Assembly: GCA_050173015.1 (NCBI GenBank)
Contig: JBFXLE010000011.1
Coordinates: forward strand, 33,232 to 97,231
Source: Calditrichaceae bacterium
GTDB taxonomy: Bacteria > Calditrichota > Calditrichia > Calditrichales > JBFXGD01
Length of the DNA: 64,000 nucleotides
Direction of reading: 5' to 3'
Of the stretch, positions 22,724-58,170 are shown piece after piece (position 1 is the stretch's first letter; each line of letters opens with the position of its first letter). Under the pieces are notes generated by a model. It worked only from the letters and a program-made list of their open reading frames with translations, ran no database searches and was not told the origin of the DNA. A program made the translations under genes and the position numbers.

Positions 22724-25177
22724 TTACTTTATCAGCATCATTTTTCTAATCGAACTTTCGCGGTTATCAACGGACAGTTTATAAAAATAAAGCCCGCTTG
22801 ATAAATTTGAACCGTCAAATTTTACCTGATAGGTTCCGGTGGCCTGATTTCTATCGACCAGGCGCGCCACAGTTTGACCAAGGATATTATAAACAAGCAC
22901 ACTTACATGGCCGGGTTTGGAGATAGAATATTTGATGGTCGTTTCCGGATTAAACGGATTCGGATAATTTTGATTTAATTTGAAATCCGCTATAATAAAG
23001 CCGTCATCATGAACCGCAGTGGGAATTCCAAATTCACTGGCGCCGATATCAATCCGGTTGCCGTAGATCCTGTCCACGCCATTTATCGCGTACTGATACA
23101 AATTTAAACCGGTTGTATCCGGGGTACCGGCATCGATGCACGCGGAACCCTCCGAAAGGTTGTATAGAAGGGAATCGGCGAATTCCGGGGCGACGTCCAG
23201 ACAATTGGAATAAATCCCGCTGTACTCAATTCCGGCTCCGTCACCGCTGAAACCGGAGGAATCACCCTCGATGTCACAGTAATAAAAATCAGGATCACAG
23301 GTAGTTTCCAACCGGATCTGTGTGCTTTCATTGCCATAAATAATGTTATTGTACAACTCATTTACAGAAGTTGCCCGGAAACTAATTCCTCCGGATTGAT
23401 TTTCTACTATCGTATTGTTAATAAAACGAGAATTGGACTGATAGCTGTATATACCATAACTGGAATTATTGAAGATCAAATTGCTGACAAAATCCGCCTG
23501 ATTGGAGTATCCGGTATAAACGCCGGATGATGAATTATTGAATATTTTATTGTTATAGATCCAGGGTTGAGAATCGCTCCCGCCAATCAACATACCGTAA
23601 CCATAATTATCATGAATACCGCAGTTTTCGATCACAGGCGAACTATTATCAATATAAACGGCCGCATTGATCCCGTGATTAAAACGAATATCTGAATGAC
23701 GAATAAGCAATTTTGAAAATCCTGTGATGTAAAATGCCCCACCATCTTTGTTGATATTGTTGGGATCCCCGTAAGGATTTCCGTATTCTATAACGCAGTA
23801 GGAAAAAACCGATGTGTCGTTGGCCGCAGGAGTTTGATTAAATAAAATCCGGTTCCAGCCTTCTTGCTGATCCGCGGCGGTGAACTTAATAGAATCACTC
23901 TCCGCGCCTTCCGCGATAAGAGTCCCCTGCACATCGATATAGAAAAATCCCTGGAATATTATTTCGACACCGGGTTCGATAGTCAGTGTGGTCCCGTCTT
24001 TAATAATGATATTTCCATCGATCAGATAGGGTGAATTTTCTTTCCCCCACACCCCCGCAACGGTATCAGTTTTGACATAATATTCGTACGCGCCGATATC
24101 GATCAATCCATTGCTAAATCGTTGTTTACCGGATAGATCAAGAACAGGTAAGGAAGCGTCATAAATATCGTTATATCCCTTGTCCCGGCAGGGAGAAAGC
24201 TTCTGAAGGGCATAGGGGGCATCTCCGGTATTCATAAAGAGAGGATCACTATCAAGGCAATTGCTATAGATTCCCGTAAATTCTGCGCCTGCGCCGTCTC
24301 CGTTAAAATATTCTTTTCCGCCCATGATATTGCAATTGTAAAAATTAGGATCACAGGTTGTTTCCAACTGAATTTGTGTCCCGGTATTAGCATAAATAGT
24401 ATTATTGTACAAATTATTTACCGAATTCGCGCGGAAAAAAATTCCTCCGTTTTGATTTTCTACTATCGTATTGTTAATAAAACGAGAATTGGACTGATAG
24501 CTGTATATACCATAATTGAAATTATTGAATATAAGATTATTGACAAAATCCGCCTGATTGGAGTATCCGGTATAAACGCCGGATGATGAATTGTTGAATA
24601 TTTTATTATTAAAAATCCCGGGTTGAGAACCGCTCCCGCCAATCAACATACCGTAACCATAATTATCATGAATACCGCAGTTTTCGATTACAGGCGAAGC
24701 GTTATCAATATAAACGGCCGCATTGGTGCCATGATTCTGACGAATATCGGAATGACGAATGCTCAGTTTTGAAAAGCCAGTGATGTAAAAAGCGCCGCCG
24801 TCCTGACTGTTTGAATAAGGTTTACCGTATTCAATAATACAGTAATCGAACAAGGAACTGTCATTCGTAGCGGGCGTCCCGGAGAAAAGAATCCGGTTCC
24901 ACCCCTCCGTTATGTTGGATGCCGTAAACTTGATCGAGTCACCGGCGGTGCCCACTGCCTGAACGGAACCCTTGACATCAATCATGTAAAATCCTTCTGC
25001 AATAACGGTTGTACCGGGATTGACCCGCAGATGAACACCGTCTTCAATTAAAATGTCACCTTTTACAAAAACCGTGTCCGCATCCCACGCTGAATCGGTT
25101 GAAATCGTTCCGGAAACATCGATAGATGAGGCCAGAGTAAAAGATGTCAGACATAATACCAGTAAAATTTTGTACAT
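22724..25177 (-). CDS. Secreted protein with two tandem right-handed parallel beta-helix modules and a T9SS C-terminal sorting domain
   Basis: Signal peptide MYKILLVLCLTSFTLASS. Repeated NN(T/L)I(F/V)xN beta-helix rungs. C-terminal LNQNYPNPFNPETTIKYSI...GLYFYKL...MMLIK. Confidence 0.8.
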   Translation of the reverse strand: MYKILLVLCLTSFTLASSIDVSGTISTDSAWDADTVFVKGDILIEDGVHLRVNPGTTVIAEGFYMIDVKGSVQAVGTAGDSIKFTASNITEGWNRILFSGTPATNDSSLFDYCIIEYGKPYSNSQDGGAFYITGFSKLSIRHSDIRQNHGTNAAVYIDNASPVIENCGIHDNYGYGMLIGGSGSQPGIFNNKIFNNSSSGVYTGYSNQADFVNNLIFNNFNYGIYSYQSNSRFINNTIVENQNGGIFFRANSVNNLYNNTIYANTGTQIQLETTCDPNFYNCNIMGGKEYFNGDGAGAEFTGIYSNCLDSDPLFMNTGDAPYALQKLSPCRDKGYNDIYDASLPVLDLSGKQRFSNGLIDIGAYEYYVKTDTVAGVWGKENSPYLIDGNIIIKDGTTLTIEPGVEIIFQGFFYIDVQGTLIAEGAESDSIKFTAADQQEGWNRILFNQTPAANDTSVFSYCVIEYGNPYGDPNNINKDGGAFYITGFSKLLIRHSDIRFNHGINAAVYIDNSSPVIENCGIHDNYGYGMLIGGSDSQPWIYNNKIFNNSSSGVYTGYSNQADFVSNLIFNNSSYGIYSYQSNSRFINNTIVENQSGGISFRATSVNELYNNIIYGNESTQIRLETTCDPDFYYCDIEGDSSGFSGDGAGIEYSGIYSNCLDVAPEFADSLLYNLSEGSACIDAGTPDTTGLNLYQYAINGVDRIYGNRIDIGASEFGIPTAVHDDGFIIADFKLNQNYPNPFNPETTIKYSISKPGHVSVLVYNILGQTVARLVDRNQATGTYQVKFDGSNLSSGLYFYKLSVDNRESSIRKMMLIK
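23012..25121. repeat. Intragenic tandem duplication (two ~1056-bp / 352-aa copies) inside the beta-helix gene
   Basis: The string ttctactatcgtattgttaataaaacgagaattggactgatagctgtatataccataa occurs at 23402 and 24458 (offset 1056). Flanking several hundred nt are identical at most positions. Confidence 0.85.
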
Positions 25178-28837: not shown

Positions 28838-30391
28838 ATGAGACCGGTTTGTTTAATTGTTAGAGACGGTTGGGGGTATAATGAAAATCCCAAAGGCAAT
28901 GCGGTGATGGCCGCTCATACTCCCAACATTGATTCATATAAAAAGAATTATCCCTGGATGTTGATTAAAACATCCGGCGAAGCGGTAGGGTTACCGGAAG
29001 GTTTTCAGGGTTCCAGTGAAGTCGGACATCTTAATATGGGCGCCGGGAGGATAGTTGTTCAGGAGCTAAAAAGAATCGACGAGGGATTTAGAGACGGTTC
29101 GATTTTCAGAACCGAAAAATGGACGGCGCTGATCGGGCAGTGGAAAGAGAATAAATCACAACTTCATTTAATGGGACTGCTGCAGGATGAAGGAGTCCAT
29201 GCCCATATGGATCATCTATTTAAGATTATCCGGCAGGCCCGTAGTGAGTACGCGGAAGGGAAAATCGTTATACATCCTTTTCTCGATGGCAGGGATACCC
29301 CGCCAAGAAGCACGCTCGAGTATATCGCCAAACTGAAATTGGTAATGCAGGAGGCGGGAGGCTGCAAAATCGGTACCGTGATGGGACGATACTACAGTAT
29401 GGACCGTTCCAGGGACTGGAAACTGACGGATAAAGCCTATAACTGTATTGTCAATCTCGATGGCCGCGGGACGGAGACGGCTGAAGACGCGGTGAGAGCC
29501 TCTTATGAAAATGATAAAACTCCGGATAATGTGGATATGTTTGATGAGTATATCCCACCTTATGTTGTCGCCGGATATGAAGGCGTGAAGGACGGAGATT
29601 GTGTTTTTCATACAAATTACCGTCAGGACCGCGCCATACAGCTTACCATGGCTTTCGTTGATGAGCGTTATCCCGGGAAACTGCAAAAAAAGGTCCGTGT
29701 CCGTTATCTTGGATTTACCCGTTATTATGATGAGTTTAAGGAATATCTCATGGGAGCGATGGGATCCGGCGGGGCCATGAATAAACTTCTTGGGGAAGTG
29801 ATTTCAGAAGCTGGTCTTAAACAGCTGCGCTTGTCCGAGACACAAAAATTTCGACATGTCACAAGCTTCTTTAACGGTAAGTTGACAACACCTTATCCGG
29901 ATGAAGACCAGGTTGAGATTAAAAGCGATATTGATCCCGCGGCATTTGCAAGTCACCCGCAGATGGAAGCGGCTGCTATTACCGATGAGCTATTAAAAAG
30001 AGTTGAAAATAATCCATATGGTTTCATTCTGATCAATTATCCGAACGGCGATATGGTTGGCCATACAGGCGATTTTAACGCTGCAAAAAAAGCTGTTGAA
30101 ATAGTAGATGAAAATATCGGTAAAGTAGTGAAAAGACTTCTGCAACTGGACGCCCATATTCTTATCACAGCCGATCACGGCAATTCGGAGCAGATGTTGG
30201 ATTATGAAACCGGCATGATAAAAACAAGTCACACCACTTTTCCGGTGGAATTGATCTATATTGCCAAAGACGCGAATGTGTGGAAGCTCAAGGATGACGG
30301 AAAACTCGCGGATATAGCGCCAACTATTTTGACGTTGCTTGGTCTACCGATCCCAAAAGAAATGACAGCAGACGTGTTGATAAAAAAATAG
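28838..30391 (+). CDS. gpmI: 2,3-bisphosphoglycerate-independent phosphoglycerate mutase
   Basis: 517 aa. Motifs RDGWG, SSEVGHLNMGAGR, YPNGDMVGHTG and ITADHGN. Confidence 0.95.
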   Translation: MRPVCLIVRDGWGYNENPKGNAVMAAHTPNIDSYKKNYPWMLIKTSGEAVGLPEGFQGSSEVGHLNMGAGRIVVQELKRIDEGFRDGSIFRTEKWTALIGQWKENKSQLHLMGLLQDEGVHAHMDHLFKIIRQARSEYAEGKIVIHPFLDGRDTPPRSTLEYIAKLKLVMQEAGGCKIGTVMGRYYSMDRSRDWKLTDKAYNCIVNLDGRGTETAEDAVRASYENDKTPDNVDMFDEYIPPYVVAGYEGVKDGDCVFHTNYRQDRAIQLTMAFVDERYPGKLQKKVRVRYLGFTRYYDEFKEYLMGAMGSGGAMNKLLGEVISEAGLKQLRLSETQKFRHVTSFFNGKLTTPYPDEDQVEIKSDIDPAAFASHPQMEAAAITDELLKRVENNPYGFILINYPNGDMVGHTGDFNAAKKAVEIVDENIGKVVKRLLQLDAHILITADHGNSEQMLDYETGMIKTSHTTFPVELIYIAKDANVWKLKDDGKLADIAPTILTLLGLPIPKEMTADVLIKK

Positions 30392-30646
30392 CCCGGTCGA
30401 TGGTTTGGGAAAAATTGTCCACTGATTTCACGGATTACACAGATTACTTAGAAAAAAAATATATCAATTTAATTCTAATCCGTGAAAATTAGTGAAATCC
30501 GTGGACCATCTTGAAAGGCCATCGAAAAAGAAACAAGCCCGCGAATTACACGAATTACCACTAAAATGAAAAAAAGTAATTATTAATTGGTGAAAATTAG
30601 TGAAATTAGTGGGCCATCTTAAAAAACCGCAAGAGAAGAAGAATTG

Positions 30647-30728
30647 TCCACAGATTGCACAGATTATTTAGAAAAATAACTATATAAATTTAATTCTAAT
30701 CCGTGAAAATCGGTGAAATCCGTGGACC
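30647..30728. repeat. Representative module A (imperfect 82-nt hairpin; 90-91 nt in copies carrying the extra 9-mer)
   Basis: The sequence is gtccacagattgcacagatta - A/T-rich loop tttagaaaaataactatataaatttaattc - taatccgtgaaaatcggtgaaatccgtggac. The outer 6 bp gtccac/gtggac are perfectly complementary. Confidence 0.85.
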
Positions 30729-30758
30729 ATCTTGAAAGGCCATCGAAAAAGAAACAAG

Positions 30759-30836
30759 CCCGCGAATTACACGAATTACCACTAAAATGAAAAAAAGTAA
30801 TTATTAATTGGTGAAAATTAGTGAAATTAGTGGGCC
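30759..30836. repeat. Representative module B (imperfect 78-nt hairpin, diverged homologue of module A)
   Basis: The sequence is gcccgcgaattacacgaattaccac - loop taaaatgaaaaaaagtaattatt - aattggtgaaaattagtgaaattagtgggc. It has the same arm/loop/arm layout, and the following linker starts with the same c/tatctt. Confidence 0.85.
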
Positions 30837-32109
30837 ATCTTAAAAAACCGCAAGAGAAGAAGAATTGTCCACAGATTGCACAGATTATTTAGAAAAATAA
30901 CTATATAAATTTAATTCTAATCCGTGAAAATCGGTGAAATCCGTGGACCATCTTGAAAGGCCATCGAAAAAGAAACAAGCCCGCGAATTACACGAATTAC
31001 CACTAAAATGAAAAAAAGTAATTATTAATTGGTGAAAATTAGTGAAATTAGTGGGCTATCTTAAAAAGCCGCAAGAGAAGAAGATTGTCCACAGATTGCA
31101 CGGATTACACAGATTATTTAGAAAAATAACTATATAAATTTAATTCTAATCCGTGAAAATCGGTGAAATTCGTGGACCATCTTGAAGGGCCATCTAAAAA
31201 GAAACAAGCCCGCGAATTACACGAATTACCACTAAAATGAAAAAAAGTAATTATTAATTGGTGAAAATTAGTGAAATTAGTGGGCTATCTTAAAAAGCCG
31301 CAAGAGAAGAAGATTGTCCACAGATTGCACGGATTACACAGATTATTTAGAAAAATAACTATATAAATTTAATTCTAATCCGTGAAAATCGGTGAAATTC
31401 GTGGACCATCTTGAAGGGCCATCTAAAAAGAAACAAGCCCGCGAATTACACGAATTACCACTAAAATGAAAAAAAGTAATTATTAATTGGTGAAAATTAG
31501 TGAAATTAGTGGGCTATCTTAAAAAGCCGCAAGAGAAGAAGAAATGTCCACAGATTGCACGGATTACACAGATTATTTAGAAAAATAACTATATAAATTT
31601 AATTCTAATCCGTGAAAATCGGTGAAATCCGTGGACCATCTTGAAAGGCCATCGAAAAAGAAACAAGCCCGCGAATTACACGAATTACCACTAAAATGAA
31701 AAAAAGTAATTATTAATTGGTGAAAATTAGTGAAATTAGTGGGCTATCTTAAAAAGCCGCAAGAGAAGAAGATTGTCCACAGATTGCACGGATTACACAG
31801 ATTATTTAGAAAAATAACTATATAAATTTAATTCTAATCCGTGAAAATCAGTGAAATTCGTGGACCATCTTGAAAGGCCATCGAAAAAGAAACAAGCCCG
31901 CGAATTACGCGAATTACCACTAAAATGAAAAAAAGTAATTATTAATTGGTGAAAATTAGTGAAATTAGTGGGCTATCTTAAAAAGCCGCAAGAGAAAAAG
32001 AATTGTCCTCAGATTGCACGGATTACACAGATTGTTTAGAAAAAAAATATATATAAAATTAATTCTAATCCGTGAAAATCAGTGAAATTCGTGGACGATC
32101 TTTGCTTTT

Positions 32110-33576
32110 CTATGGCAATTTTGCCAGTTCGATGATCAGATTTTTATGCATCTGATTCAAATTGGCAAGGGATCCGCTGTAATTATTAGCAATAATGGAA
32201 AAGGCAATCAACCGCCCCGTCCTGCTTTGCACATAACCGGACAGACTGCGCACCCGGGCGAGTGTGCCTGATTTTAATCTGGCATTATTTGCGAGAATGG
32301 TGTTGGATCCGAATGAACTAAATGAAGCCGGGTCGGCAGGATCTCCCGCAATGCCGAGTGAGTTGTAAAAATAGTCGAAGTATGGATGAGAAGTCATATT
32401 TACAAGCAATTGGGTTATGGATTCGGTCGTAATACTGTTTTCCCTGGAAAGACCGGAGCCGTCATACAGATGCATGCCGTCCGTTGATATTTTGTTGTTT
32501 TCACAAAAATTATAAAGAGAATGGATACCTTGTTTGATTGATGAGTTTCCGGTTTTTTCAAGAGCGATCAGGCGCAGGAGCTGCTCGGCGTAGAGATTCA
32601 TACTGCGTTTATTTGTGTAATATACGATTTCCTTTATGGGTGATGACATCGTTTTGTGTATTAATTTTGCAGAATTATAGCTTATGGTCTGATTCTGTTT
32701 TTTCGGAATTCCGCTTATGGCTATACCCATCTTTTTAAGTTGATCGGAAAAATATTGGGCAGTGAACAAAGCGGGGTCAGGGATCGAACCCTTAATGGCG
32801 AACTCACTCACACCCGCGGGAACGGTTCCCCGCAGAGTTGCCGTATATTGCCCGGGAGCGCAATATATATAACCGCGATCACCGGAGCCTCTGCGTCCGG
32901 TTAACATATGATTGTCGAAGCTGAGTCCGGGAATAACCGGTTCTGTTCTAAGTGTGTTGGCGGGTTGACCGTTGAATTTGCCCGGTTTGAAATAAAGAAA
33001 ATAAAGATTGTCATGGATTGATAAAGCATTGGTGCCTGCGCCGTAGTAATTTCCAATATCACCCCAGGTCCAGTTATCGGGTACGGCGTTACCGCTAAAA
33101 AGCAAATCATCAGCGATAATCGCGCCGCGGATTTCCCTGATGCCCTTTTTCCCGACAGCAACAGCCCACTCAGCCATCAGATTATTTAGCGAAGCGGAAC
33201 TGTCTATTCTGTCCGAGCCGAGTGCCGGATCTCCTCCGCCTTTAATGTAGATATTTCCGGTTAGAATACCATCAGGTCCTATATTTCCGTCATAATAGAG
33301 GTGTGTTTCGATTCGATGATCAGGGCCGAGCAGATCCAGAGCGGCCGCGGTGGTTAGTAATTTTAGGCCCGAAGCTGGGGCCAGACTGGCGTTGCCGTTA
33401 AAATCGATAATAACTTCAGAATTATCCGTGTATTGAGCATAAATACTCCATTGCGCATGACGGAGGCTGTAATAATTCTGATAAGAGTCAATCAGTTTTT
33501 GGAGCTGGTTTTGCGCAAAGAGCAGTGCGGGTATTATCAATATTAATATCAAAGTCGTTATTATTCTATTTCGCAT
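32110..33576 (-). CDS. dacB: D-alanyl-D-alanine carboxypeptidase/endopeptidase, PBP4 (peptidase S13) family
   Basis: Signal peptide, SxxK in APASGLKLLTTAAAL, and the typical PBP4 length and pattern (GGGDPAL, DGSGLSR, KSGTL). Confidence 0.85.
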   Translation of the reverse strand: MRNRIITTLILILIIPALLFAQNQLQKLIDSYQNYYSLRHAQWSIYAQYTDNSEVIIDFNGNASLAPASGLKLLTTAAALDLLGPDHRIETHLYYDGNIGPDGILTGNIYIKGGGDPALGSDRIDSSASLNNLMAEWAVAVGKKGIREIRGAIIADDLLFSGNAVPDNWTWGDIGNYYGAGTNALSIHDNLYFLYFKPGKFNGQPANTLRTEPVIPGLSFDNHMLTGRRGSGDRGYIYCAPGQYTATLRGTVPAGVSEFAIKGSIPDPALFTAQYFSDQLKKMGIAISGIPKKQNQTISYNSAKLIHKTMSSPIKEIVYYTNKRSMNLYAEQLLRLIALEKTGNSSIKQGIHSLYNFCENNKISTDGMHLYDGSGLSRENSITTESITQLLVNMTSHPYFDYFYNSLGIAGDPADPASFSSFGSNTILANNARLKSGTLARVRSLSGYVQSRTGRLIAFSIIANNYSGSLANLNQMHKNLIIELAKLP

Positions 33577-45443: not shown

Positions 45444-46571
45444 TCAGGAATAAAATTCCGAAATACTGTCCATCACATAGTCTTTTTGCGCATCCGTCAA
45501 CTCAGGATATATGGGAATCGCCAATGAAGACCCAGCGATTTTTTCCGCGACCGGGAATTCGCCATTTTTATATCCAAGGTAATTAAAACACTCCTGTTCA
45601 TGGAAGCAAACCGGATAATATATTTCACAACCGATATTCTTACTTTGAAGAAATTTCAGTAATTCATCACGATTTTCGACCAGTATAATATACTGATTGA
45701 AAATATGTCTGTATCCTTCAACTCTCACAGGTATTTTTACCTTACTCTGCAAATTGCGCTTTTTTATTCCGGCATCATAATAATCGGCATTTTTCTGTCT
45801 TCCGGCAGTCCATCCGTCTAGATATTTAAGTTTTACATCCAGAACGACGGCCTGGAGCGAATCCAGCCTGAAGTTGCCACCTATCATCTTGTGGTAATAT
45901 TTAGGGTGGGCGCCATGATTTCTTAAATAAGCCAGTTTATTAAACAGGTTTTCATCGTCGGTCGTCACAAGGCCGCCGTCACCGAAACCACCGAGGTTCT
46001 TACTGGGGAAGAACGAGAAACATCCGATGTGACCAATTGAACCGGCTCTTCTTCCGTCTTTGTATTCAGAACCGATTGCCTGAGCTGCATCTTCGATGAC
46101 ATACAGACTGTTTTTCTTTGCGATATCCATTATTGGATCCATGTCCGCAAGCTGACCATAAAGATGAACAGGAATAATGGCTTTCGTTTTCTTTGTTATG
46201 GCGGCTTCAATTTTTGATGGATCAATATTATAACTTTCCGGATCAACATCCACAAATACCGGAACAGCATTCATTCGTGATATGCATCCGGCAGTTGCAA
46301 AAAATGAATAAGTTGTGGTGATAACTTCATCTCCGGGCTGCAGGTCGATTGCCATTAAAGCGATTAATAGCGCGTCTGTCCCGGATGAAACACCAAGCGC
46401 GTATTTTGATTGACAATAAGAAGCTACATTATCTTCAAAGGCTTTTACTTTAGGCCCCAATATGAAGTACTGCGATTCGATGACATCCTTTACCACCGGC
46501 TCAATTTCATCACGGATAGCACTGTATTGCGCTTTCAGATCCAGTAACGGAACATTTGTGACTTTTTCCAA
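45444..46571 (-). CDS. DegT/DnrJ/EryC1/StrS-family PLP-dependent sugar aminotransferase
   Basis: The family pattern runs throughout (YFILGPKV, SGTDAL, FSFFPSKNLG with the PLP lysine). Confidence 0.9.
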   Translation of the reverse strand: MEKVTNVPLLDLKAQYSAIRDEIEPVVKDVIESQYFILGPKVKAFEDNVASYCQSKYALGVSSGTDALLIALMAIDLQPGDEVITTTYSFFATAGCISRMNAVPVFVDVDPESYNIDPSKIEAAITKKTKAIIPVHLYGQLADMDPIMDIAKKNSLYVIEDAAQAIGSEYKDGRRAGSIGHIGCFSFFPSKNLGGFGDGGLVTTDDENLFNKLAYLRNHGAHPKYYHKMIGGNFRLDSLQAVVLDVKLKYLDGWTAGRQKNADYYDAGIKKRNLQSKVKIPVRVEGYRHIFNQYIILVENRDELLKFLQSKNIGCEIYYPVCFHEQECFNYLGYKNGEFPVAEKIAGSSLAIPIYPELTDAQKDYVMDSISEFYS

Positions 46572-46669
46572 AATTTATTCTCCTGATTTAATTCTTAAGT
46601 ATAATATTTTATCATCTTAAAATAAGTTTAAATTTACATACAAATTATTGTAATTAAAACGCTTTCTTC

Positions 46670-48154
46670 TTAAAAGTATTTTTTTATTCCGGGGATTAGT
46701 CTCAAAAACTGCACTGAAATGGATTTTATGCGATCCAATTCGATTTGTTCGTAAAAATTGAGTAATAACAGGGTGAACGGGAATAATACGAGTAATGAAA
46801 GTTTGAAACTATAATTGATAAGTTCCGACATTGGAGAATATAAAAAAGTAAAAAAATAGAAGATGACTCCCAGGGAAAGAACCTTCAATAATTTCAAATT
46901 TTCAAATGGTATTTTGTAAAGTTTAATCGAAAAATAATATGAACAAACATAGAGTATAATGTATGAAATCAGCGTGGCATATGCCGCGCCCATCATACGG
47001 TATTTTGGAATAAGGTATAAATTGATTCCCACATTTGCGATAAAAGCGATAAGATAAATTAAAGCATAATAGCCGGTTTTTCTCTTCAGAATAATACTAA
47101 TAGACGCAACGGAACTCGCGCCACTGAAAATGTAAGCCAGAATTATTATCGGCACAACCGTGGCCGCGGGCCAATAACTCGAGTCGTTTGCAAAAAATTT
47201 GATAAGATCTTGACTAAAAAATGCTAATCCCAGCCCTGCCCAGGTCAGGATAAAAATAAAATATGTCATGATCTTGCTATAATAACGCAGATCTCCCTGT
47301 TTTCCGTATTTTTTAAACGCGAGAGGCATGATGCCAAGCATAAAGGATTGAATTAAGAAAACATTCAAAATTCCGGCGATTTTATACCCTAAGTTATAAA
47401 GGCCGACTTCCTCATAATTCACAAGAAGCTTTAGCAGATATCGATCACCCATACTCAGGAGCATTGATGCAAGTGATGAAAAAATTAATGGTAAACCGAA
47501 ATAAAACGATTCTTTCCAGATAGACAGATCTATTTTAAACTTCATGTTTGAGATAGATGGAAACAGGAGGATCAGCGTCAGTAAAATTTCTCCAATCAGA
47601 TAGGCATAAAGGATTCCGCTGATGCCGATTTTCAGATATGCCACAAAATATATATTTAAAGCTAATATTACTGTTAATTGCGTGATATTTGATGCCGCGT
47701 AGATAACCGATTTTTCTCTGGCCCGCAGATCATTTAATAAGAGGTTGTTCATGACTCTGAAAAAGATGATGCCTGAAGAAATTTGAAAGTAAAGTTTAAA
47801 TAAAGATGGCGTCTCAAAAAACGACGATAATGGGCCTGATAAAGAAAAGAACATCATCGTTACTGAAAATGTGGACAAACCCAGCATCATAAAAATAGAG
47901 AAAAATACTATTTTTCTTTTATTCTCAAAACCCTCTCTGTGGTAATAGCTCAAAAGAGATGTACTTTGGCCAAAAATTAATACCTGGGACGCGATTAAGA
48001 ATGTAATCTCTAATACACCCAGAATTCCATATTCGGTAACCGAGATGTGCGCGGTGTATAAGGGAAGGAGTACAATACCGATCAATTTTGTCGCGAATGA
48101 TCCAATACTATAAATTGCGGTATGCTTTAATGTCTCTTTTATGTTCTTAATCAT
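46670..48154 (-). CDS. Wzx-like polysaccharide/oligosaccharide flippase (MOP superfamily)
   Basis: 494 aa with about 12-14 TM helices. Located in a glycosyltransferase cluster. Confidence 0.75.
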   Translation of the reverse strand: MIKNIKETLKHTAIYSIGSFATKLIGIVLLPLYTAHISVTEYGILGVLEITFLIASQVLIFGQSTSLLSYYHREGFENKRKIVFFSIFMMLGLSTFSVTMMFFSLSGPLSSFFETPSLFKLYFQISSGIIFFRVMNNLLLNDLRAREKSVIYAASNITQLTVILALNIYFVAYLKIGISGILYAYLIGEILLTLILLFPSISNMKFKIDLSIWKESFYFGLPLIFSSLASMLLSMGDRYLLKLLVNYEEVGLYNLGYKIAGILNVFLIQSFMLGIMPLAFKKYGKQGDLRYYSKIMTYFIFILTWAGLGLAFFSQDLIKFFANDSSYWPAATVVPIIILAYIFSGASSVASISIILKRKTGYYALIYLIAFIANVGINLYLIPKYRMMGAAYATLISYIILYVCSYYFSIKLYKIPFENLKLLKVLSLGVIFYFFTFLYSPMSELINYSFKLSLLVLFPFTLLLLNFYEQIELDRIKSISVQFLRLIPGIKKYF

Positions 48155-48233
48155 GCCTTGTTCGTTTTACCCGTCATTGTGGTTCTTTAACTAATTTGTT
48201 AAGCTTACTATGTAATCAGAATGATGATTCTTT

Positions 48234-49016
48234 TTATATCATGGATTTCCTTCTCAGTAGCACAAACAACTGATATGGTTTCTTTGGAGATAATAATATA
48301 TTTAATAAATCACATATAAAAGCAACAGCATGGATTTTTGGAGTTATTAAAAATTTTTTGTTGCAGTTCGGACAAAGCGTGCCTGCTTGTGTAGTCTTGA
48401 TCCATCTTTTGGGGATCCATGATTCTGGCGGTGCAATGGCATGTTTAATCACGGCCAATAATCCATTGTACCGCCTTATTTTTGTGCCAAATTCAAAAGA
48501 CTTGATCACATCAAAATCACTAAATAATTCTTTAATAATTTTCAGATTTAATTTACGCATATGATAAGATCGATTAAATATAAATGCGCATTGAGGACAT
48601 TTAATATAATTTTTTTCAACATTTTCATTGTTTGGAAATGTCAGATATATATATTTCCTGCTCAATCTTTTGATTTCAGATATAGTGGATTCAAAAACTT
48701 CATCAGGCAAATGTTCCAGAACTTCACTGGAAAAAACCAAATCGAACTTATTCGTAGCCGCGCCTATCTTGTCCGATGACGCTCTCAGCCGTTTAGTTGT
48801 TACAAAATTTAAGGCGTTTCTGCTTCTGTCAACCGCGATGACATTAAATTTATTACCTAGTTGGTTCGTGATTGTACCATCACCACAACCAATGTCAATA
48901 AGATTTTGAACATCATGGGGGATGGTCAGTAAAATTTGTTTGATTTTATCTTTTAAATGATTATCAAGATTAGCTGCTGTCCAATCAAATGATTCGTAAT
49001 AACTTTTATTATCCAT
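48234..49016 (-). CDS. Class I SAM-dependent methyltransferase with Cys-pair (zinc-ribbon-like) insertions
   Basis: Motif I is LIDIGCGDGT; the acidic loop is VIAVDRS. CPQC and CPNC pairs lie in the C-terminal half. Confidence 0.8.
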   Translation of the reverse strand: MDNKSYYESFDWTAANLDNHLKDKIKQILLTIPHDVQNLIDIGCGDGTITNQLGNKFNVIAVDRSRNALNFVTTKRLRASSDKIGAATNKFDLVFSSEVLEHLPDEVFESTISEIKRLSRKYIYLTFPNNENVEKNYIKCPQCAFIFNRSYHMRKLNLKIIKELFSDFDVIKSFEFGTKIRRYNGLLAVIKHAIAPPESWIPKRWIKTTQAGTLCPNCNKKFLITPKIHAVAFICDLLNILLSPKKPYQLFVLLRRKSMI

Positions 49017-49050
49017 AAATTATAAATCTCAAATATCTTTATTAAAAAAC

Positions 49051-50250
49051 TTAACCTTTAGACTTTACGTCTTGGTAGACTTTAATTAAGTTTTTTTCTA
49101 TTTTTTCCCACCGATACTCTGACTTAATAGCATCAAAGGAGTTTTTTCCCATTTGCACCGCTATATCAGGGTTTTGATACAGGTGATAGATTTTATCTGC
49201 CAGATCAACCTCATTGGAAGGCTCGTGAATCAATCCACATCCTAATTCTTCTATCAGATTGGCCTGGGCCTCACAATTACTCACGATTATGGGTTTTGAG
49301 AAGGCCATATATTGAAAAAGTTTGTTGGCGTATGTAGTCTCATGATGTCTGTTTTTTAATAATGGTGAAATGCATACATTACTTGCTTTTATATAAGAAG
49401 GGAATAATTTCATATCCTTCCACCCTACTAAGTCAATCTGTTTTTCTAAATGTAAATCAGCGGTCAAAGTTTTTAAATAGTTGTCATCACGGCTATTTCC
49501 AACAATGACTAATTTGATATTTTTTATTTTGTGTTTCAAAAGGTTTATAGATTTTATTGCCGATTCTAATCCCCTTCTTACGCCCGTAGAACCTAAATAT
49601 AATATGACAAAGTTATATTCGTACTTTTTGGTGATATCCGAATAGACCGGATAACTTAAAAACTTATTTAGTCGTACAGAATTAGGTACAACATATATGT
49701 CATTTTTCCGTTTTTTGCTCTTCTTAAGAATGTCCTTTTTTGCCTCGGCTGTAACAACAATAATTTTATCTACGCGTTCAATAAAAAAAAACTGTTTTTC
49801 CACCCATTTATCAAGGTTAATCAATATATTTCCGGGAAAACTCCTGACGTGAGAATATAATTTCATAATCTCTGGACGATTTTCGTGTAAATCCAATATG
49901 ATGGGGATGGTATCATTTTTCCATAATTTTAAAATAGGCTCAATTGCTACCATATCGTGAACGTGAATTACATCGATTGAAACCGTTTTAAAAAACTGTT
50001 GAAGTTTTTTTCTTAATAATTGGTGATAAAATGGTACGGTGTAGGCAAGAGGTGATAACTTCTCATGGAGTAACTTACTGAATTTATAGCGATAGACGTT
50101 TATATTGTTTATCAATTCAAATGAAGCTTTATTATCAAAATCAAGACAGAACAAGTGCACTTCATGCCCGGCATTTATCAGTGATATGGCCTCGTTCTCA
50201 ACCCGGTTATCAGGCGGGAATTCCTGATCGAGGATCATAGCAATTTTCAA
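49051..50250 (-). CDS. Glycosyltransferase family 4 (GT-B fold)
   Basis: The TTG at 50250 lies 5 nt after AGAGGAG and gives (M)KIAMILDQEFPP. The C-terminal E-x7-E-like region is present. The ORF-track start (50298) is probably too long. Confidence 0.8.
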   Translation of the reverse strand: MKIAMILDQEFPPDNRVENEAISLINAGHEVHLFCLDFDNKASFELINNINVYRYKFSKLLHEKLSPLAYTVPFYHQLLRKKLQQFFKTVSIDVIHVHDMVAIEPILKLWKNDTIPIILDLHENRPEIMKLYSHVRSFPGNILINLDKWVEKQFFFIERVDKIIVVTAEAKKDILKKSKKRKNDIYVVPNSVRLNKFLSYPVYSDITKKYEYNFVILYLGSTGVRRGLESAIKSINLLKHKIKNIKLVIVGNSRDDNYLKTLTADLHLEKQIDLVGWKDMKLFPSYIKASNVCISPLLKNRHHETTYANKLFQYMAFSKPIIVSNCEAQANLIEELGCGLIHEPSNEVDLADKIYHLYQNPDIAVQMGKNSFDAIKSEYRWEKIEKNLIKVYQDVKSKG

Positions 50251-50310
50251 AATTTCTCCTCTTAACAAAAAATTTTCATTATTTTTAAATGAAAACAACT
50301 TTTCTGAAAA

Positions 50311-52245
50311 CTAAAGGTAATAAGTTTCCAGATCAAAAGCCTTGTCTTTAAATTTATCAGACTGAATAAACATCTTTTCCCAGATCGCGATTCCAAGGAC
50401 AATCCATAGGTAATTATAATGCCATCTGAGTCTTGGATGAGGGGGATAATCCATTATGCGCCGCAAATACGCATAATTAAAAATACCCTGTTCATCTATA
50501 AATTCTTTTGTCAAAATCTTCTCGGCGATCAGCTTTAAATCCTTCTTAAACTGAAGATAAGGATTGACCGTAAATCCCCATTTCTTCTTTTGGAGAATCT
50601 CATCCGGAAGGCGGGAGCGCATTGCTTCCCTGAACAGGTGTTTTGTGACATTTCTCCGGATTTTCATTTCTCCGGGGACCGTGTACATAAACTCAACCAG
50701 ATCCTTGTCAAGAAACGGCACACGCAATTCAACTGAATGGGCCATTGACATTCTGTCATCAACCAGTAGATAATCATTCACCATTTTTGAATGAAATTCA
50801 GCGTAGGCGACCCGGTCAATGGGTGATAGATTCCCATTCGGCGCGAACAATTGGTCAAAATATTGATGAACTGGTTTTAATTTTGTCGATAAGAAATCAG
50901 GTTGATAAATTTCATGATAGAAGCCCGAATCATATTCCCACACGTTCCGGATAATTAAATAAAACTTTTGCAAATTACCCGTGGACAACAACATTTGGAG
51001 CCCGCGCCTATATTCATCAAAACGCAGGGTTCCTGATTTGTTCTGAAGCATGAAGAGTAATTGACTGAATGGCTCAAGAAAGGTTTTTTGAAAACCGGGT
51101 GAAAGTTTTTTTAATAATGCTCCTGCCGAATTGATATATTTATAGATATCGTATCCGATAAACAGCTCATCTCCCCCAAGCCCTCCGAGAATGACTTTAT
51201 ATTCCGGTGAAACAAATCGCGACATATTAAATCCCTGCAGGAGATTTATTTTCGGTTCCTCCGCGTGCCAGATTACCTCAGGAAATTGTCTGAGAGGATC
51301 AAAGGCCAGTGAGGTTGTATAATGATTCGTATCAAAATGTTTTGCAATTTTTTCAGCGTCCGGGAACTCATCTGTGTCTTCATTAAACCCAAGGGTAAAT
51401 GTATTGATTTCAGGGACATTAAGCTCATGCATCATGGCCACAATGGCAGATGAATCCATGCCGCCGGAGAGATAGACACCTATGGGAACATCACTTAACA
51501 GCTGTTTGCGAATGGCCTCCCTGAGATGAGAATGAATACTCTCAATTACATCCCTTTCGGAAAGTCCGTAATCCGGATTCATCGGCAGAGTATAATATGG
51601 TTTAATACTTATCTTATTATTTTCATAAATTAAGAAGTGGGCGGGAGGAACACGGAAAATGTCCTTGAATAGCGTCTCATCTCCCTGTGTATATCTTAAA
51701 TTTATCTGGCTGTGAAGCGCGTCATAATTAATACCGCGTTTGACATCCGGATGAAGAAGGATTGATTTCTGTTCTGATGAGAAAATAAATTTATTGTCTT
51801 TGCGCCAATAATGAAGAGGTTTAACACCAAAATGATCTCTGACCAGAATTAATCTTTTTTTCTTCACATCATAAAGCGCAAATGCAAAAATACCGTTTAG
51901 ATCCTTTATAAAATCCAACCCGTATTCTTCATAACAGTGAACCAGCGTTTCAGTGTCGCTCGTGGTTAAAAATTTATGTCCTTTTTCTATGAGCCGGTCT
52001 TTGATTGATTGAAAATTATAGATTTCTCCGTTAAATACAATGACAACTGATTTATCTTCATTAAATATCGGCTGGTCACCGGTATTCAGATCGATAATTG
52101 ATAAGCGCCGGTGTCCGAGTGTGACAGCTCCATTATTGTAATAGCCGGAATTGTCGGGACCGCGATGCGCCATCATATCGCACATATCGGTTATCAGCTG
52201 CCTGTTATCTTTACCGTTCTCAATGATTCCGCAGATTCCGCACAT
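50311..52245 (-). CDS. asnB: Asparagine synthase (glutamine-hydrolysing) family amidotransferase
   Basis: N-terminal MCGICG (Cys2 nucleophile) and the PP-loop SGGMDSS. Confidence 0.9.
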   Translation of the reverse strand: MCGICGIIENGKDNRQLITDMCDMMAHRGPDNSGYYNNGAVTLGHRRLSIIDLNTGDQPIFNEDKSVVIVFNGEIYNFQSIKDRLIEKGHKFLTTSDTETLVHCYEEYGLDFIKDLNGIFAFALYDVKKKRLILVRDHFGVKPLHYWRKDNKFIFSSEQKSILLHPDVKRGINYDALHSQINLRYTQGDETLFKDIFRVPPAHFLIYENNKISIKPYYTLPMNPDYGLSERDVIESIHSHLREAIRKQLLSDVPIGVYLSGGMDSSAIVAMMHELNVPEINTFTLGFNEDTDEFPDAEKIAKHFDTNHYTTSLAFDPLRQFPEVIWHAEEPKINLLQGFNMSRFVSPEYKVILGGLGGDELFIGYDIYKYINSAGALLKKLSPGFQKTFLEPFSQLLFMLQNKSGTLRFDEYRRGLQMLLSTGNLQKFYLIIRNVWEYDSGFYHEIYQPDFLSTKLKPVHQYFDQLFAPNGNLSPIDRVAYAEFHSKMVNDYLLVDDRMSMAHSVELRVPFLDKDLVEFMYTVPGEMKIRRNVTKHLFREAMRSRLPDEILQKKKWGFTVNPYLQFKKDLKLIAEKILTKEFIDEQGIFNYAYLRRIMDYPPHPRLRWHYNYLWIVLGIAIWEKMFIQSDKFKDKAFDLETYYL

Positions 52246-52248
52246 GGG

Positions 52249-53253
52249 TTAAATCCGGTTTAGTTTTTTTAAAGCTTTAAATTTTACGGGATACATTCTT
52301 GCAATATTATAAATACGATCATATTTTTCAATTTTAAATTGAAATTGACTTAAAAAATCATTTTCCGAGAGTCTGGATAGTATTTTTAGTTGAGTATTTA
52401 TTAAACGAAGATATCCAATGGTACATGGATCGGTCTCGGGATAATGATCCATCCTGCAAAGATTAAATCTCAGCCAATATTTCATGTCAAATTCGGGCAG
52501 CCAGTGGGTTAAGCTCTCTATCCCGGCGTTGAAAAGGTTTTTCGCTAACAAATGTGATTCGGCGTCACTTGATTCGGGCACAGCTCTTACAAAATCATAC
52601 AGGCCGAAAAGGGAAAAGAGATGTCCGTCCAGCACCATGGTCGGTTCGTCGGCAACATACTCCTCATAAAATGGAAAACCATTTCTTAGATTCGCCGATA
52701 CACCGCCGTCGCGAATATCGACAGTGAAGGGAATCAGGGCTTTTTTACAAACGTCGAAATATTCTTTTCGACCGGTCATTTGCCAGGCCCGGAGCAGGAT
52801 CGATAAACCGCGGCTCTGGGCGAAGGCCGATTTCCAGGGGCGGGATATTTTGTATTCAGGTTTTGGGATATCCGTCAGCCAGTAACTTCCCAGTTTAGAA
52901 TCATCTACGCGGTTCTCATAAAACCAGTCTGCTAGTCTCAGGAAATATTGTTTTTTATCGATGCTATTTGATTTTTTAAACGAGGCAAACACAGCCAAAC
53001 CGTACTGGCCTATTGAAATCGGATAATAATGGAGCCGGGGCTCCTCAACATCAATATAAGATGAGTTCAAAGGAATTCCGTTATCATCAAATGTCGAAAT
53101 AAGCCGGTTCAGGCGGGCCGGATCTTCATCAAATATTAAATAATATTCTCCCAAATCCTCCGAGTGTAATTTTTCTGAAATGGCAAAGGAATTCCGGTTG
53201 GTGATATCGGTCTTTAGTTTTTTAATCATGAACAGGATTTTTTTTATATTCAA
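52249..53253 (-). CDS. D-glucuronyl C5-epimerase C-terminal-domain family protein
   Basis: PWKSAFAQSRGLSILLRAWQMTG...GGV...FPFYEEY...MVLDGHLFSLFGLYD matches the remembered C5-epimerase domain pattern (PWySamAQGqalSvLvRAy ... WyEEY ... vLNG..ysL.GLyD). Confidence 0.6.
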   Translation of the reverse strand: MNIKKILFMIKKLKTDITNRNSFAISEKLHSEDLGEYYLIFDEDPARLNRLISTFDDNGIPLNSSYIDVEEPRLHYYPISIGQYGLAVFASFKKSNSIDKKQYFLRLADWFYENRVDDSKLGSYWLTDIPKPEYKISRPWKSAFAQSRGLSILLRAWQMTGRKEYFDVCKKALIPFTVDIRDGGVSANLRNGFPFYEEYVADEPTMVLDGHLFSLFGLYDFVRAVPESSDAESHLLAKNLFNAGIESLTHWLPEFDMKYWLRFNLCRMDHYPETDPCTIGYLRLINTQLKILSRLSENDFLSQFQFKIEKYDRIYNIARMYPVKFKALKKLNRI

Positions 53254-54536
53254 TGAGAATCTCCCGCAAGAATCTCAGCTAATTTCTTTGACAATTCTTT
53301 TCTGGAGTACTTGCTTGTCTCTGTCTTGTCTGCTTTATTCCACCGGTCGTTTTTCCAGTTTTGGAAATATGATAACAGCGTATCATTAAGCGATTGATTA
53401 TGTGCGTACATTTTCCCGCTTCCGGTCTGTTCCAGAATCATCGCTGCGTCACCATCAACGGGCCCTATTCCCAGAATATAATTTCCGGAGGCCATATACT
53501 CAAAAATTTTGCCTGTTACGATTCCCCTGTTCTCCGGAATATCCGGAATAACGAGTAACAGTAGGTCCGAATCGATCATCTGAACGAGCATCTTATCATG
53601 AGAAATATAAGGATTGAAATTAATATATGATTCTAAATTATATTCCTTGACGGTCATCTCGATTGTTTTATGGACACTGCCGAAGAATGTAATTTCCATC
53701 TTGTTAAGAATAGCCGGATCAAAGCTTGTAAGTGATTTAAAAAAAGCGTGAATATTCTGGTCCTTTCCCAAATGGCCAAAATATTTTATTCTGAACTTAC
53801 GGCTTTGTTTTTTCTCCACATTACCAAAATCATCCGGATCGTATCCATTGGAAATTAAATGATAGTTATTATTTGCTTTATGGCTGAAAAGGCTGATTAA
53901 AGATGGACTGATTGTTACAATTTCGTCAGCCGCGCCGAGAGTTTCTTTCTCCATTTTAAGGTCACGGTTCCGGGCATAGTTTGTGCGTGTAAGATCACTT
54001 TGCCAGAACGCGTCCACCCACGGATCTCTGTAATCGGCGATCCACCTTAGTCCTGATTTTTTGGCCAGGCGCCGTGCGATTAGCTGAACGGAGTGCGGCG
54101 GAGAGGATGACAAAATGACATCAATGTTTTCATTCTCTATAATTTTCATCCCGGTTCTTACGGCAAATGGAATCCAGCCTATTTTGGCATCCGGGATAAA
54201 TACATTAGAGCGAATCCAGCGGGAGATTCGTTCCTTAATATTTTCATCGTGTTTTTTGTTCAATACAAACGTTGGAAGTTTCTCGTTTTTTTTCCTTCCG
54301 GTAAATCTTTTGTAAAGCGTAACCGGTTCCAGACTGCTGGTTTTATATACCTTACAACCTTCCGGAATGTCTTTGAGCAGGCTCTCATCAATAGCAGGAT
54401 ATTCACCGCTCTCTACCGTCAGTATCACCGGTTGCCAGCCGAACTCCGGAAGATATTTCGCGAATTTTAATACCCGCTGAACCCCGGGTCCGCCTGCCGG
54501 CGGCCAGTAATAGGTAATGATCAGGACTTTTTTCAT
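53250..54536 (-). CDS. Glycosyltransferase (GT-B, group-1-like)
   Basis: The N-terminus MKKVLIITYYWPPAGGPGVQRV is typical of GT4-like enzymes. 4-nt overlap with the downstream gene. Confidence 0.7.
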   Translation of the reverse strand: MKKVLIITYYWPPAGGPGVQRVLKFAKYLPEFGWQPVILTVESGEYPAIDESLLKDIPEGCKVYKTSSLEPVTLYKRFTGRKKNEKLPTFVLNKKHDENIKERISRWIRSNVFIPDAKIGWIPFAVRTGMKIIENENIDVILSSSPPHSVQLIARRLAKKSGLRWIADYRDPWVDAFWQSDLTRTNYARNRDLKMEKETLGAADEIVTISPSLISLFSHKANNNYHLISNGYDPDDFGNVEKKQSRKFRIKYFGHLGKDQNIHAFFKSLTSFDPAILNKMEITFFGSVHKTIEMTVKEYNLESYINFNPYISHDKMLVQMIDSDLLLLVIPDIPENRGIVTGKIFEYMASGNYILGIGPVDGDAAMILEQTGSGKMYAHNQSLNDTLLSYFQNWKNDRWNKADKTETSKYSRKELSKKLAEILAGDSH

Positions 54537-54546
54537 TTTTTTTATA

Positions 54547-57033: not shown

Positions 57034-57102
57034 AAAATCTCCTTGTCTGGAATTTAATTTTGCCGGAGGTGATAATTTCTGATCTAAATTAACAAATGCA
57101 GG

Positions 57103-58146: not shown

Positions 58147-58170
58147 GAAAGTGTTATCTCGGTTAGAAGG

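Follow-up and report, generated by a model that had tools for sequence, protein, structure and literature searches.

A 1.7-kb tandem array of polar palindromes in a Calditrichaceae genome belongs to a cross-phylum repeat family associated with GxxExxY nuclease genes

Repetitive extragenic palindromic (REP) sequences are lineage-specific. Each is a palindrome of 20–40 bp with a conserved GTAG or CGTC at one end, and this tag sorts most REPs into two super-families (PMC3733652). Here we describe an array of palindromes in a 64-kb stretch of DNA from a Calditrichaceae bacterium, hereafter the window. The array lies between gpmI and a dacB-like gene. It most resembles clusters of REPs, or of REP doublets forming hairpins (REPINs), together with their REP-associated tyrosine transposase (RAYT), yet it lacks the defining marks of those systems: there is neither a GTAG/CGTC tag nor a Y1 transposase. 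The palindromes are members of a polar repeat family that is spread over many phyla and tightly associated with genes for GxxExxY nucleases. Neither a RAYT or another transposase nor a known RNA family was found to be involved. GxxExxY proteins match PF13366 (PDDEXK_3), which a 2012 survey of PD-(D/E)XK proteins listed as 'function unknown, multiple transfers' (PMC3424549).

The 1.7-kb gap between the two genes is occupied by a genuine tandem array: 15 hairpin-shaped repeats without coding sequence. Tandem Repeats Finder (TRF) placed the array at 30409–32102, with a period of 229, 7.5 copies and 96% matches. A second, overlapping TRF description has a period of 459, and no other large tandem repeat was found in the window. 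The stop codons of gpmI and the dacB-like gene are 1,718 bp apart and the array takes up nearly all of this space. An initial annotation, made from the sequence alone, had proposed a tandem array of about 7.4 copies holding 15 hairpin modules; this agrees with the TRF copy number and with our count of eight A and seven B imperfect palindromes. Its unit starts (30414, 30644, 30864, 31084, 31313, 31543, 31772 and 32002) and unit lengths (220–230 bp) were confirmed by our unit table. Likewise, A and B are diverged versions of one ~110-bp design and stand in direct order. The proposed succession of A module, linker, B module and linker also held, with slightly wider dimensions: A modules have 82–92 nt, B modules 80 nt and linkers 30–31 nt (~30 bp). 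Consistent with the earlier claim that the array is non-coding, the longest open reading frame (ORF) within it has at most 35 aa, and the unit length is no multiple of three. When that annotation called the chromosome compact, it made an assumption. The array and its parts are as follows.

30409–32102, plus strand: whole tandem array, with an L-type and then an R-type arm on the plus strand (TRF, unit table, unit comparison, arm-word scan)
30417–30506, plus strand: A module 1, an edge copy and the most diverged; fold −26.2 kcal/mol on the plus and −31.1 kcal/mol on the minus strand
30536–30615, plus strand: B module 1, closing stem GCCCGC...GTGGGC; fold −22.2 kcal/mol on the plus and −16.4 kcal/mol on the minus strand
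30646–30727, plus strand: A module 2, a short form minus one 9-bp sub-repeat (CACGGATTA) (unit table, folding, unit comparison)
30757–30836, plus strand: B module 2 (module folding)
30867–30948, plus strand: A module 3, a short form; units 3 and 2 differ at two sites, both outside the A modules
30978–31057, plus strand: B module 3 (module folding)
31087–31177, plus strand: A module 4, three sub-repeats per arm (module folding)
31207–31286, plus strand: B module 4 (module folding)
31316–31406, plus strand: A module 5; no substitutions between units 5 and 4 (folding, unit comparison)
31436–31515, plus strand: B module 5 (module folding)
31516–31545, plus strand: example of a B-to-A linker (TATCTTAAAAAGCCGCAAGAGAAGAAGAAAT), near-identical to array linkers at an unrelated locus (L108, below)
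31546–31636, plus strand: A module 6 (module folding)
31666–31745, plus strand: B module 6 (module folding)
31775–31865, plus strand: A module 7 (module folding)
31895–31974, plus strand: B module 7 (module folding)
32005–32096, plus strand: A module 8, an edge copy with a degraded closing stem (GTCCTC) (folding, unit comparison)

Briefly, each arm is built of two or three head-to-tail words of 9–10 bp, CAC-NN-ATT-A/G on the left and GTG-A(A)-AAT-NN on the right. An AT-rich centre of 25–30 bp separates the two arms. In A modules, the left arm reads GTCCAC-AG-ATT-G-CAC-GG-ATT-A-CAC-AG-ATT and the right arm AAT-CC-GTG-AAAAT-CG-GTG-AAAT-CC-GTGGAC. The closing hexamers are GTCCAC/GTGGAC in A modules and GCCCGC/GTGGGC in B modules. 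Chance would give 0.45 matches to the arm word CACNNATTNCACNNATT in the window; there are 35, every one within the array. The spacer base is an A on one strand in both arms (ATT-A-CAC on the left, GTG-A-AAT on the right). Hence, the palindrome is imperfect in a fixed manner and the module has a polarity, which is common to all 15 modules. A single unit folds far better than shuffled sequence (z of −6.0 and −6.6 on the two strands), with A modules preferring the minus and B modules the plus strand. The conserved parts of the arms are CAC/GTG and ATT/AAT. Among 46 non-redundant family hairpins, the variable positions near the closing stem are complementary in 33 cases (inner) and 28 cases (outer), against ~24 by shuffling. 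The retained words, their 9–10-bp phasing and the existence of arms-only arrays elsewhere favour a readout of duplex words by their sequence at least as strongly as they favour selection for a hairpin. The A-A/T-T asymmetry of the spacer is fixed, and a folded form specific to one strand would be compatible with it.

The family was sought in a contig collection holding one genome per species, using a degenerate 25-nt right-arm pattern derived from the window (GTGAAAWTNNGTGAAATNNGTGGRC). It matched 113 stretches where, by our own chance estimate, one or two are expected. According to record titles, the matches represent at least 14 phylum-level lineages. Those with several loci are listed here.

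Bacteroidota: about 35 loci
Calditrichota: 14 loci
Verrucomicrobiota: 10 loci
Planctomycetota: 7 loci
Neomarinimicrobiota: 4 loci
Chlorobiota: 3 loci
Desulfobacterota: 3 loci
Treponema (Spirochaetota): 3 loci

Single matches came from Melioribacteraceae, Cloacimonadota, Omnitrophota, Lentisphaeria, Nitrospiraceae, Aminicenantes, Anaerolineales and others. None of the 113 stretches is from Gammaproteobacteria, Firmicutes, Actinobacteria or Cyanobacteria. Some metagenome-assembled genomes (MAGs) have matches on 5–11 contigs, and several contigs per MAG are matched in Calditrichia and Bacteroidota. Viral contigs gave no match to the arm pattern, so nothing indicates carriage by phages. With the linker pattern AAAARCCGSAAGAGAAGA, metagenome contigs gave chance purine-rich matches only, and an arm was present at 0 of 120 such loci.

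Family sites are intergenic and mostly at gene 3′ ends. By crude ORF calling, 18 lie between convergent and 3 between divergent genes (p = 0.0015), and the 5′-side gene is on the motif strand at 74 of 107 sites (p = 9e-5). Full hairpins of the window design are frequent; solo arms, short hairpin arrays and arms-only arrays (L040, L028) also occur. Arrays have lineage-specific linkers and periods (~45 bp in L028, 100 in L040, 110 in L011 and 169 in L023). The hairpins are typically preceded by a T-run and followed by an A-run. Defined by arm words at a 9–10-bp period, closure by G(T/C)CCAC and GTGG(A/G)C, and fixed polarity, the family takes in all 15 modules of the window. The same arm design recurs in L005–L117 and around GxxExxY genes selected without the motif. 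A REP-like family had been among the initial suggestions, and this dispersal of the arm design in intergenic DNA of other Calditrichota and many phyla speaks for it. Full-text literature searches with arm 12-mers returned unrelated primers only.

Two groups of sites have features of their own. In MAG CAZIEA01 (L023 6150–6704; L088, L098, L113, L005), the right arm stands inside longer intergenic mosaics of words (CATGAAGAN three times, CTACATGTC three times, CTTCAGY twice and GTAATCTGCG twice) with a mosaic period of 169 bp; it is possible that the arm word is here just one among several combining modules of repeated words. Three Verrucomicrobiae MAGs of different species (L026 1430–1545; L079; L085) carry a solo right arm, GTGAAAATCCGTGAAATCTGTGGAC, within ~110 nt of near-identical flanking sequence. 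This suggests a conserved solo-arm element, possibly a co-opted one.

Another Calditrichaceae MAG (L108) contains two arrays of window-type A/B units at a locus unrelated to that of the window. The A/B unit is therefore at different loci in two Calditrichaceae species. The L108 linker, CTTCTTAAAAAGCCGGAAGAGAAGAAGAATT, is near-identical to the window linker, and the loop of its B module is very similar. Differences between window and L108 modules at the NN positions are uncompensated. The two L108 arrays flank a 123-aa ORF that matches TIGR04256 'GxxExxY protein' (4e-44) and PF13366 PDDEXK_3.

GxxExxY genes are present in 14 of the 113 motif loci, in 13 cases no more than ~600 bp from the motif. 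Among 150 ORFs adjoining motif sites, the commonest Pfam family is PF13366 (10 members), followed by nucleotide-sugar epimerases and dehydratases. As a control, we used the metagenome loci retrieved with the linker pattern, which have no arms. The 744 kb of motif loci hold 14 GxxExxY genes and the 736 kb of unrelated metagenome loci none (p about 1e-4). The position of the gene relative to the arms varies. It lies between a left and a right arm in L042, L040, L049 and L016 (the 'loop' position), between a complete hairpin and a right arm in L032, and between complete hairpins in L052 and L108 (the 'linker' position). The initial annotation had proposed a search for a RAYT. None is encoded by the window ORFs, the Y1 transposase is not among the families matched by at least two of the 150 neighbour ORFs, and no insertion sequence (IS) transposase is among the recurrent neighbours of motif sites.

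The association was also examined in reverse. Homologues of the L108 protein were taken from a protein search and picked solely for long contigs. Five loci with six GxxExxY genes in total were examined, and the same arms flank every gene.

L244: Carboxylicivirga chromosome, arms flanking the gene
L245, 2447–2900: gene with left and right arms between PAPS_reduct (cysD-like) and GTP_EFTU (cysN-like) genes, 3′ of an APS (adenylylsulfate) kinase gene
L246, 1490–3100: two tandem genes (209.8 bits each by hidden Markov model, HMM), each bracketed by complete hairpins
L247: one gene adjoining comM, flanked by arms
L248–L251: one gene between an EamA gene and a GT2 (glycosyltransferase) gene, flanked by arms

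At L245, the insertion interrupts the normally tight cysD/cysN operon. L246 lies where a polysaccharide cluster ends, and the neighbours there are small genes resembling toxin–antitoxin genes (DUF2683, DUF4258/DUF2283). At a further locus, on a 1.5-Mb contig of a Desulfobacterales MAG (L011 3400–4500), an array with a period of ~110 bp has the same arms and a different linker (CATCAGCGGTTTGGTCCTCGGATGTCAGTTG...). A GxxExxY gene is surrounded by this array, the hairpins of which are opposite to the gene in orientation. We conclude that the repeat–nuclease association spans phyla. No description of it was found in the literature: we encountered no account of repeats flanking GxxExxY genes and no published definition of such palindromes.

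The GxxExxY family is large, with 29,239 representatives at 50% identity (E <= 0.001). A typical member has ~125 aa (TIGR04256/PF13366). The predicted structure (AlphaFold AF2, pLDDT 92) is a minimal, Cas4/RecB-like PD-(D/E)XK core with an intact E...D...ExK set. The closest folds in the PDB are Cas4 SSO0001 (E 4.5e-4, TMq 0.57), lambda exonuclease and the AddAB nuclease domain; a sequence search of solved structures gave no match to GxxExxY. In the protein database, GxxExxY genes are mostly on contigs of <5 kb, as expected where repeats flank them. Some representatives (P0241, P0265, P0270, P0287 and others) have 250–295 aa and two matched stretches, and look like tandem domain fusions.

We turn to the surroundings of the array. 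Its flanking genes are convergent.

28838–30391, plus strand: gpmI, 2,3-bisphosphoglycerate-independent phosphoglycerate mutase (Pfam iPGM_N, Metalloenzyme); product of 517 aa, stop codon 30389–30391
32110–33576, minus strand: dacB-like S13 D-Ala-D-Ala carboxypeptidase (Pfam, ORF list); product of 488 aa, stop codon 32110–32112

The gpmI product is 76% identical to its Caldithrix abyssi counterpart, and its best named relatives are Calditrichota. Four relatives with gpmI products of 76–83% identity have a hairpin and T-run terminator directly after gpmI and no modules 3′ of it. Among the relatives sampled, the array is thus specific to the lineage of the window and represents a lineage-specific gain. 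The gene 3′ of gpmI differs in all four, so no orthologous gpmI/dacB empty site can be demonstrated. In the window, there is no conventional terminator between the gpmI stop codon and the first A module, and the array is the sole hairpin-forming sequence between the two genes. Behind the B hairpin, the minus strand has CTTGTTTCTTTTTC, a T-rich run flagged as terminator-like by our scan. Since neither convergent gene has another terminator, the array hairpins probably double as the 3′ boundary of both the gpmI and the dacB transcripts.

The other genes of the window are housekeeping genes and a low-GC polysaccharide cluster at 45–59 kb. A Pfam scan of all 50 window ORFs of at least 80 aa found no transposase, integrase, cas gene, Y1 transposase, PDDEXK_3 or DnaA, and no dnaN; the lack of cas and integrase genes had been stated initially and stands. 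There is no tRNA gene in the window, and cumulative GC skew rises smoothly through the array locus. The polysaccharide biosynthesis cluster (45447–59094, GC 0.33–0.40) encodes a DegT aminotransferase, a flippase, a methyltransferase, GT1, GT2 and GT4 glycosyltransferases, asparagine synthase and a C5-epimerase-like protein. Clusters of this type are the commonest home of GxxExxY genes and arms elsewhere; the one in the window has neither. At 22727–25177 (minus strand), the window encodes an 817-aa beta-helix (NosD-like) protein with a type IX secretion system (T9SS) C-terminal sorting domain, and its two long, closely similar halves indicate an internal duplication. An 18-nt palindrome, AACCGTTnnAACGGTT, is a high-copy motif in Caldithrix abyssi (PMC5317091). 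It is unrelated to the modules and absent from the window even at one mismatch. Apparently, this Calditrichota lineage is without the palindrome, at least within the window.

The explanation that we favour, with a probability of roughly 60%, is that the array consists of gene-less copies of a REP/REPIN-like, polar palindromic element associated with GxxExxY genes and amplified in place. The palindromes would be the DNA that the GxxExxY nuclease recognises or targets. They would spread with or through it, much as REPs and REPINs depend on RAYTs, miniature inverted-repeat transposable elements (MITEs) on a transposase, or a homing-endonuclease gene on its split site. In this genome, a hairpin-plus-linker unit of ~110 bp would have arrived 3′ of gpmI and given rise to an A and a B form by divergence. 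The 229-bp A+B unit could then have been multiplied by slippage during replication or by unequal recombination, while slippage of sub-repeats may have produced the 9-bp length variants. The array is able to exist without any cellular function. More tentatively, the palindromes and the GxxExxY nuclease might together be an undescribed, cross-phylum class of selfish element, either a PD-(D/E)XK counterpart of REP/RAYT or a system homing on its own multi-copy palindrome. In such a class, a Cas4/RecB-like nuclease would recognise the phased words and drive both gene-carrying and gene-less copies, and the window array would be the largest amplified gene-less form among the loci examined.

Several points weigh against the favoured explanation. 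The six-frame translation of the window, searched with HMM filters off, contains no GxxExxY gene or remnant (best E-value 2.1), and no arm words occur in the 64 kb outside the array. Our evidence on the source genome is the window itself, and for this organism dispersed copies and a GxxExxY gene of its own are thus hypothetical. The association of gene and repeat is a correlation, and ~12% of motif loci, no more, carry a GxxExxY gene. Both gene and arms favour nucleotide-sugar clusters; hence, the link could look stronger than it is if both tend to settle in variable regions. The six genes of the reverse test are one subfamily (60–73% identical to the L108 protein), and motif and control loci differ in taxonomic make-up. 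Inspected by eye only, family sites have no consistent flanking direct repeat that would be a target-site duplication. Finally, independent short-read contigs with the flanking genes all stop inside the array, so the copy number rests on the assembly of this window alone.

These contig ends, which leave the copy number without independent support, are the point in favour of an assembly artefact, with one or a few units inflated by the assembler. The units themselves tell against it. Divergence is highest in the edge units, 1 and 8, and units 4 and 5 have zero substitutions between them; units 2 and 3 share the 9-bp deletion of one sub-repeat. Such ordered divergence with a shared indel argues against inflation and is the pattern expected from unequal crossing-over, not from identical reads being collapsed or expanded. 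In addition, both borders recur in independent samples (the left in assembly L002; the right in GCA_041599155.1, contig JBFHXE010000056.1, L238), and the L108 genome has arrays of the same unit. We find an artefact scarcely credible. A classical cluster of REPs, REPINs or bacterial interspersed mosaic elements (BIMEs), mobilised by a RAYT (Y1 HUH) encoded elsewhere in the genome, is very improbable too. The modules are indeed extragenic palindromes that lie at gene 3′ ends, form local clusters and are scattered through relatives, and a REPIN is likewise a long hairpin from two inverted repeats. However, module termini lack a GTAG or CGTC tag, modules have 80–92 nt rather than 20–40 nt, their polarity is uniform, unlike that of BIMEs, and no Y1_Tnp was found in the window or among the recurrent neighbour families. 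The same words also occur across many phyla, whereas REPs are confined to lineages. The initial idea of a REP-like family amplified in place thus survives in modified form: REP hallmarks are missing and the family is polar, crosses phyla and is tied to GxxExxY genes.

Selection could instead act on RNA, the array being a multi-hairpin sponge, a processed small RNA array, or a set of hairpins that terminate or stabilise the gpmI and dacB mRNAs as E. coli REPs do. The strong folding of both strands (z about −6), the lack of another terminator at either flanking gene where relatives have one after gpmI, and the terminator-like T-rich run behind minus-strand B hairpins all fit. So do the placement of the family at gene 3′ ends, with the motif strand tending to be the sense strand of the upstream gene, and the conserved A-A (or T-T) spacer mismatch that gives the hairpin polarity. 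Even so, we consider RNA-level selection unlikely. Rfam has no match in the window at the gathering threshold; in E-value mode, only MIR7993 and MIR9481 appeared, at 25–30 bits against thresholds of 100–130, and these are chance matches to plant microRNA hairpins. A modules fold best on the minus and B modules on the plus strand, so that no strand is favoured. An attempt to call the RNA strand from G-U versus A-C mismatches was rejected with the same outcome, A modules favouring minus and B modules plus. Compensatory change at variable positions is weak, a T-run before and an A-run after the hairpins is the reverse of an intrinsic terminator, and termination needs one or two hairpins, not fifteen. 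The multi-domain structured RNA envisaged in the initial annotation therefore has little support, given the Rfam result, the opposite strand preferences and the weak covariation. Its third suggestion, an array of protein-binding sites, is possible and fits conservation of words rather than pairing. In its host-function version, ~85–90 phased words of 9–10 bp titrate or organise a DNA-binding protein, as a datA-like DnaA-box cluster, an iteron-like sink or a nucleoid site. The CAC and ATT words are conserved while pairing at NN positions is weak, arms-only arrays exist in other genomes (L040, L028), and a 9–10-bp period puts sites on a single helix face. Five A modules have TTGTCCACA at their base, a sequence that differs from the DnaA box TTATCCACA by a single mismatch, and many family members begin TTATCCAC or TTGTCCAC. 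IS50 ends carry a DnaA box, a precedent for host-factor sites in element ends. But there is no perfect DnaA box, the 1.7 kb hold five one-mismatch boxes with none in B modules, and most family members have G rather than A at box position 9. The GC skew is smooth at the locus and the window lacks dnaA and dnaN. Absence from the sampled relatives is unexpected for a housekeeping titration site, and words that are dispersed and tied to a nuclease gene better fit element ends. We rate a host-function binding array as less likely still than RNA-level selection.

Other candidates were rejected. A clustered regularly interspaced short palindromic repeat (CRISPR) array is contradicted by two linker types that recur throughout; as first noted, there are no unique spacers, and there is no cas gene in the 64 kb. 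The attC, retron and integron readings were dropped by inspection: the modules are without GTTRRRY/RYYYAAC cores, and neither cassette ORFs nor an integrase are present. A BIME has defined linkers, as here, but the orientation of modules does not alternate (15 of 15 in one polarity).

GxxExxY/PDDEXK_3 is a very large protein family of unknown function. If the favoured explanation is true, a cross-phylum DNA partner would provide a testable function for the family, namely binding or cutting the arm words. It would also account for two features of GxxExxY genes, their position between the genes of intact operons and the very short contigs that carry most of them. The partnership of repeat and nuclease is a standing topic in the colonisation of bacterial genomes by selfish repeats, and the present case would be a second, non-HUH solution to a partnership of the REP/RAYT type. 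Such arrays also break short-read assemblies: every short-read contig found ends inside one.

Set beside known systems, the array has partial counterparts in several. DnaA-box clusters (E. coli datA, the B. subtilis DnaA-box clusters) and plasmid iterons are likewise non-coding DNA with many phased words of 9–10 bp in the same orientation; here, the words are mostly poor boxes and, in other taxa, are dispersed genome-wide and linked to a nuclease. Homing endonuclease genes offer another parallel. I-Ssp6803I is a free-standing homing endonuclease of the PD-(D/E)XK type. As in homing systems, a small PD-(D/E)XK gene is found between the halves of a palindromic site that is uninterrupted elsewhere, and it can be inserted between genes of intact operons (cysD/cysN in L245). 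In contrast, the 'site' is present as many copies of a repeat instead of being a unique conserved gene, the nuclease gene also lies between complete hairpins, and the predicted fold is nearest to nucleases of the Cas4/lambda-exonuclease type, not to a known homing enzyme. MITEs, pneumococcal BOX, Neisseria Correia and enterobacterial repetitive intergenic consensus (ERIC) elements are likewise short and non-coding, with an AT-rich centre between terminal inverted repeats; they too are gene-less kin of a gene-carrying form and vary in the number of internal sub-units. Our family has both the inverted arms and a gene-carrying form, the gene of which is GxxExxY, but regular head-to-tail arrays with a conserved 30-bp linker are atypical of MITEs. 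The nearest likeness is to REPs, BIMEs and REPINs of Enterobacteria and Pseudomonas: extragenic imperfect palindromes at gene 3′ ends, both dispersed and clustered, with REPINs forming a long hairpin from two inverted repeats and a small nuclease-type gene characteristically flanked by inverted repeats. The modules described here are two to three times longer than REPs and have arms built of 9–10-bp sub-repeats, and the gene associated with them encodes a Cas4/RecB-like PD-(D/E)XK protein, GxxExxY, in place of a Y1 HUH transposase.

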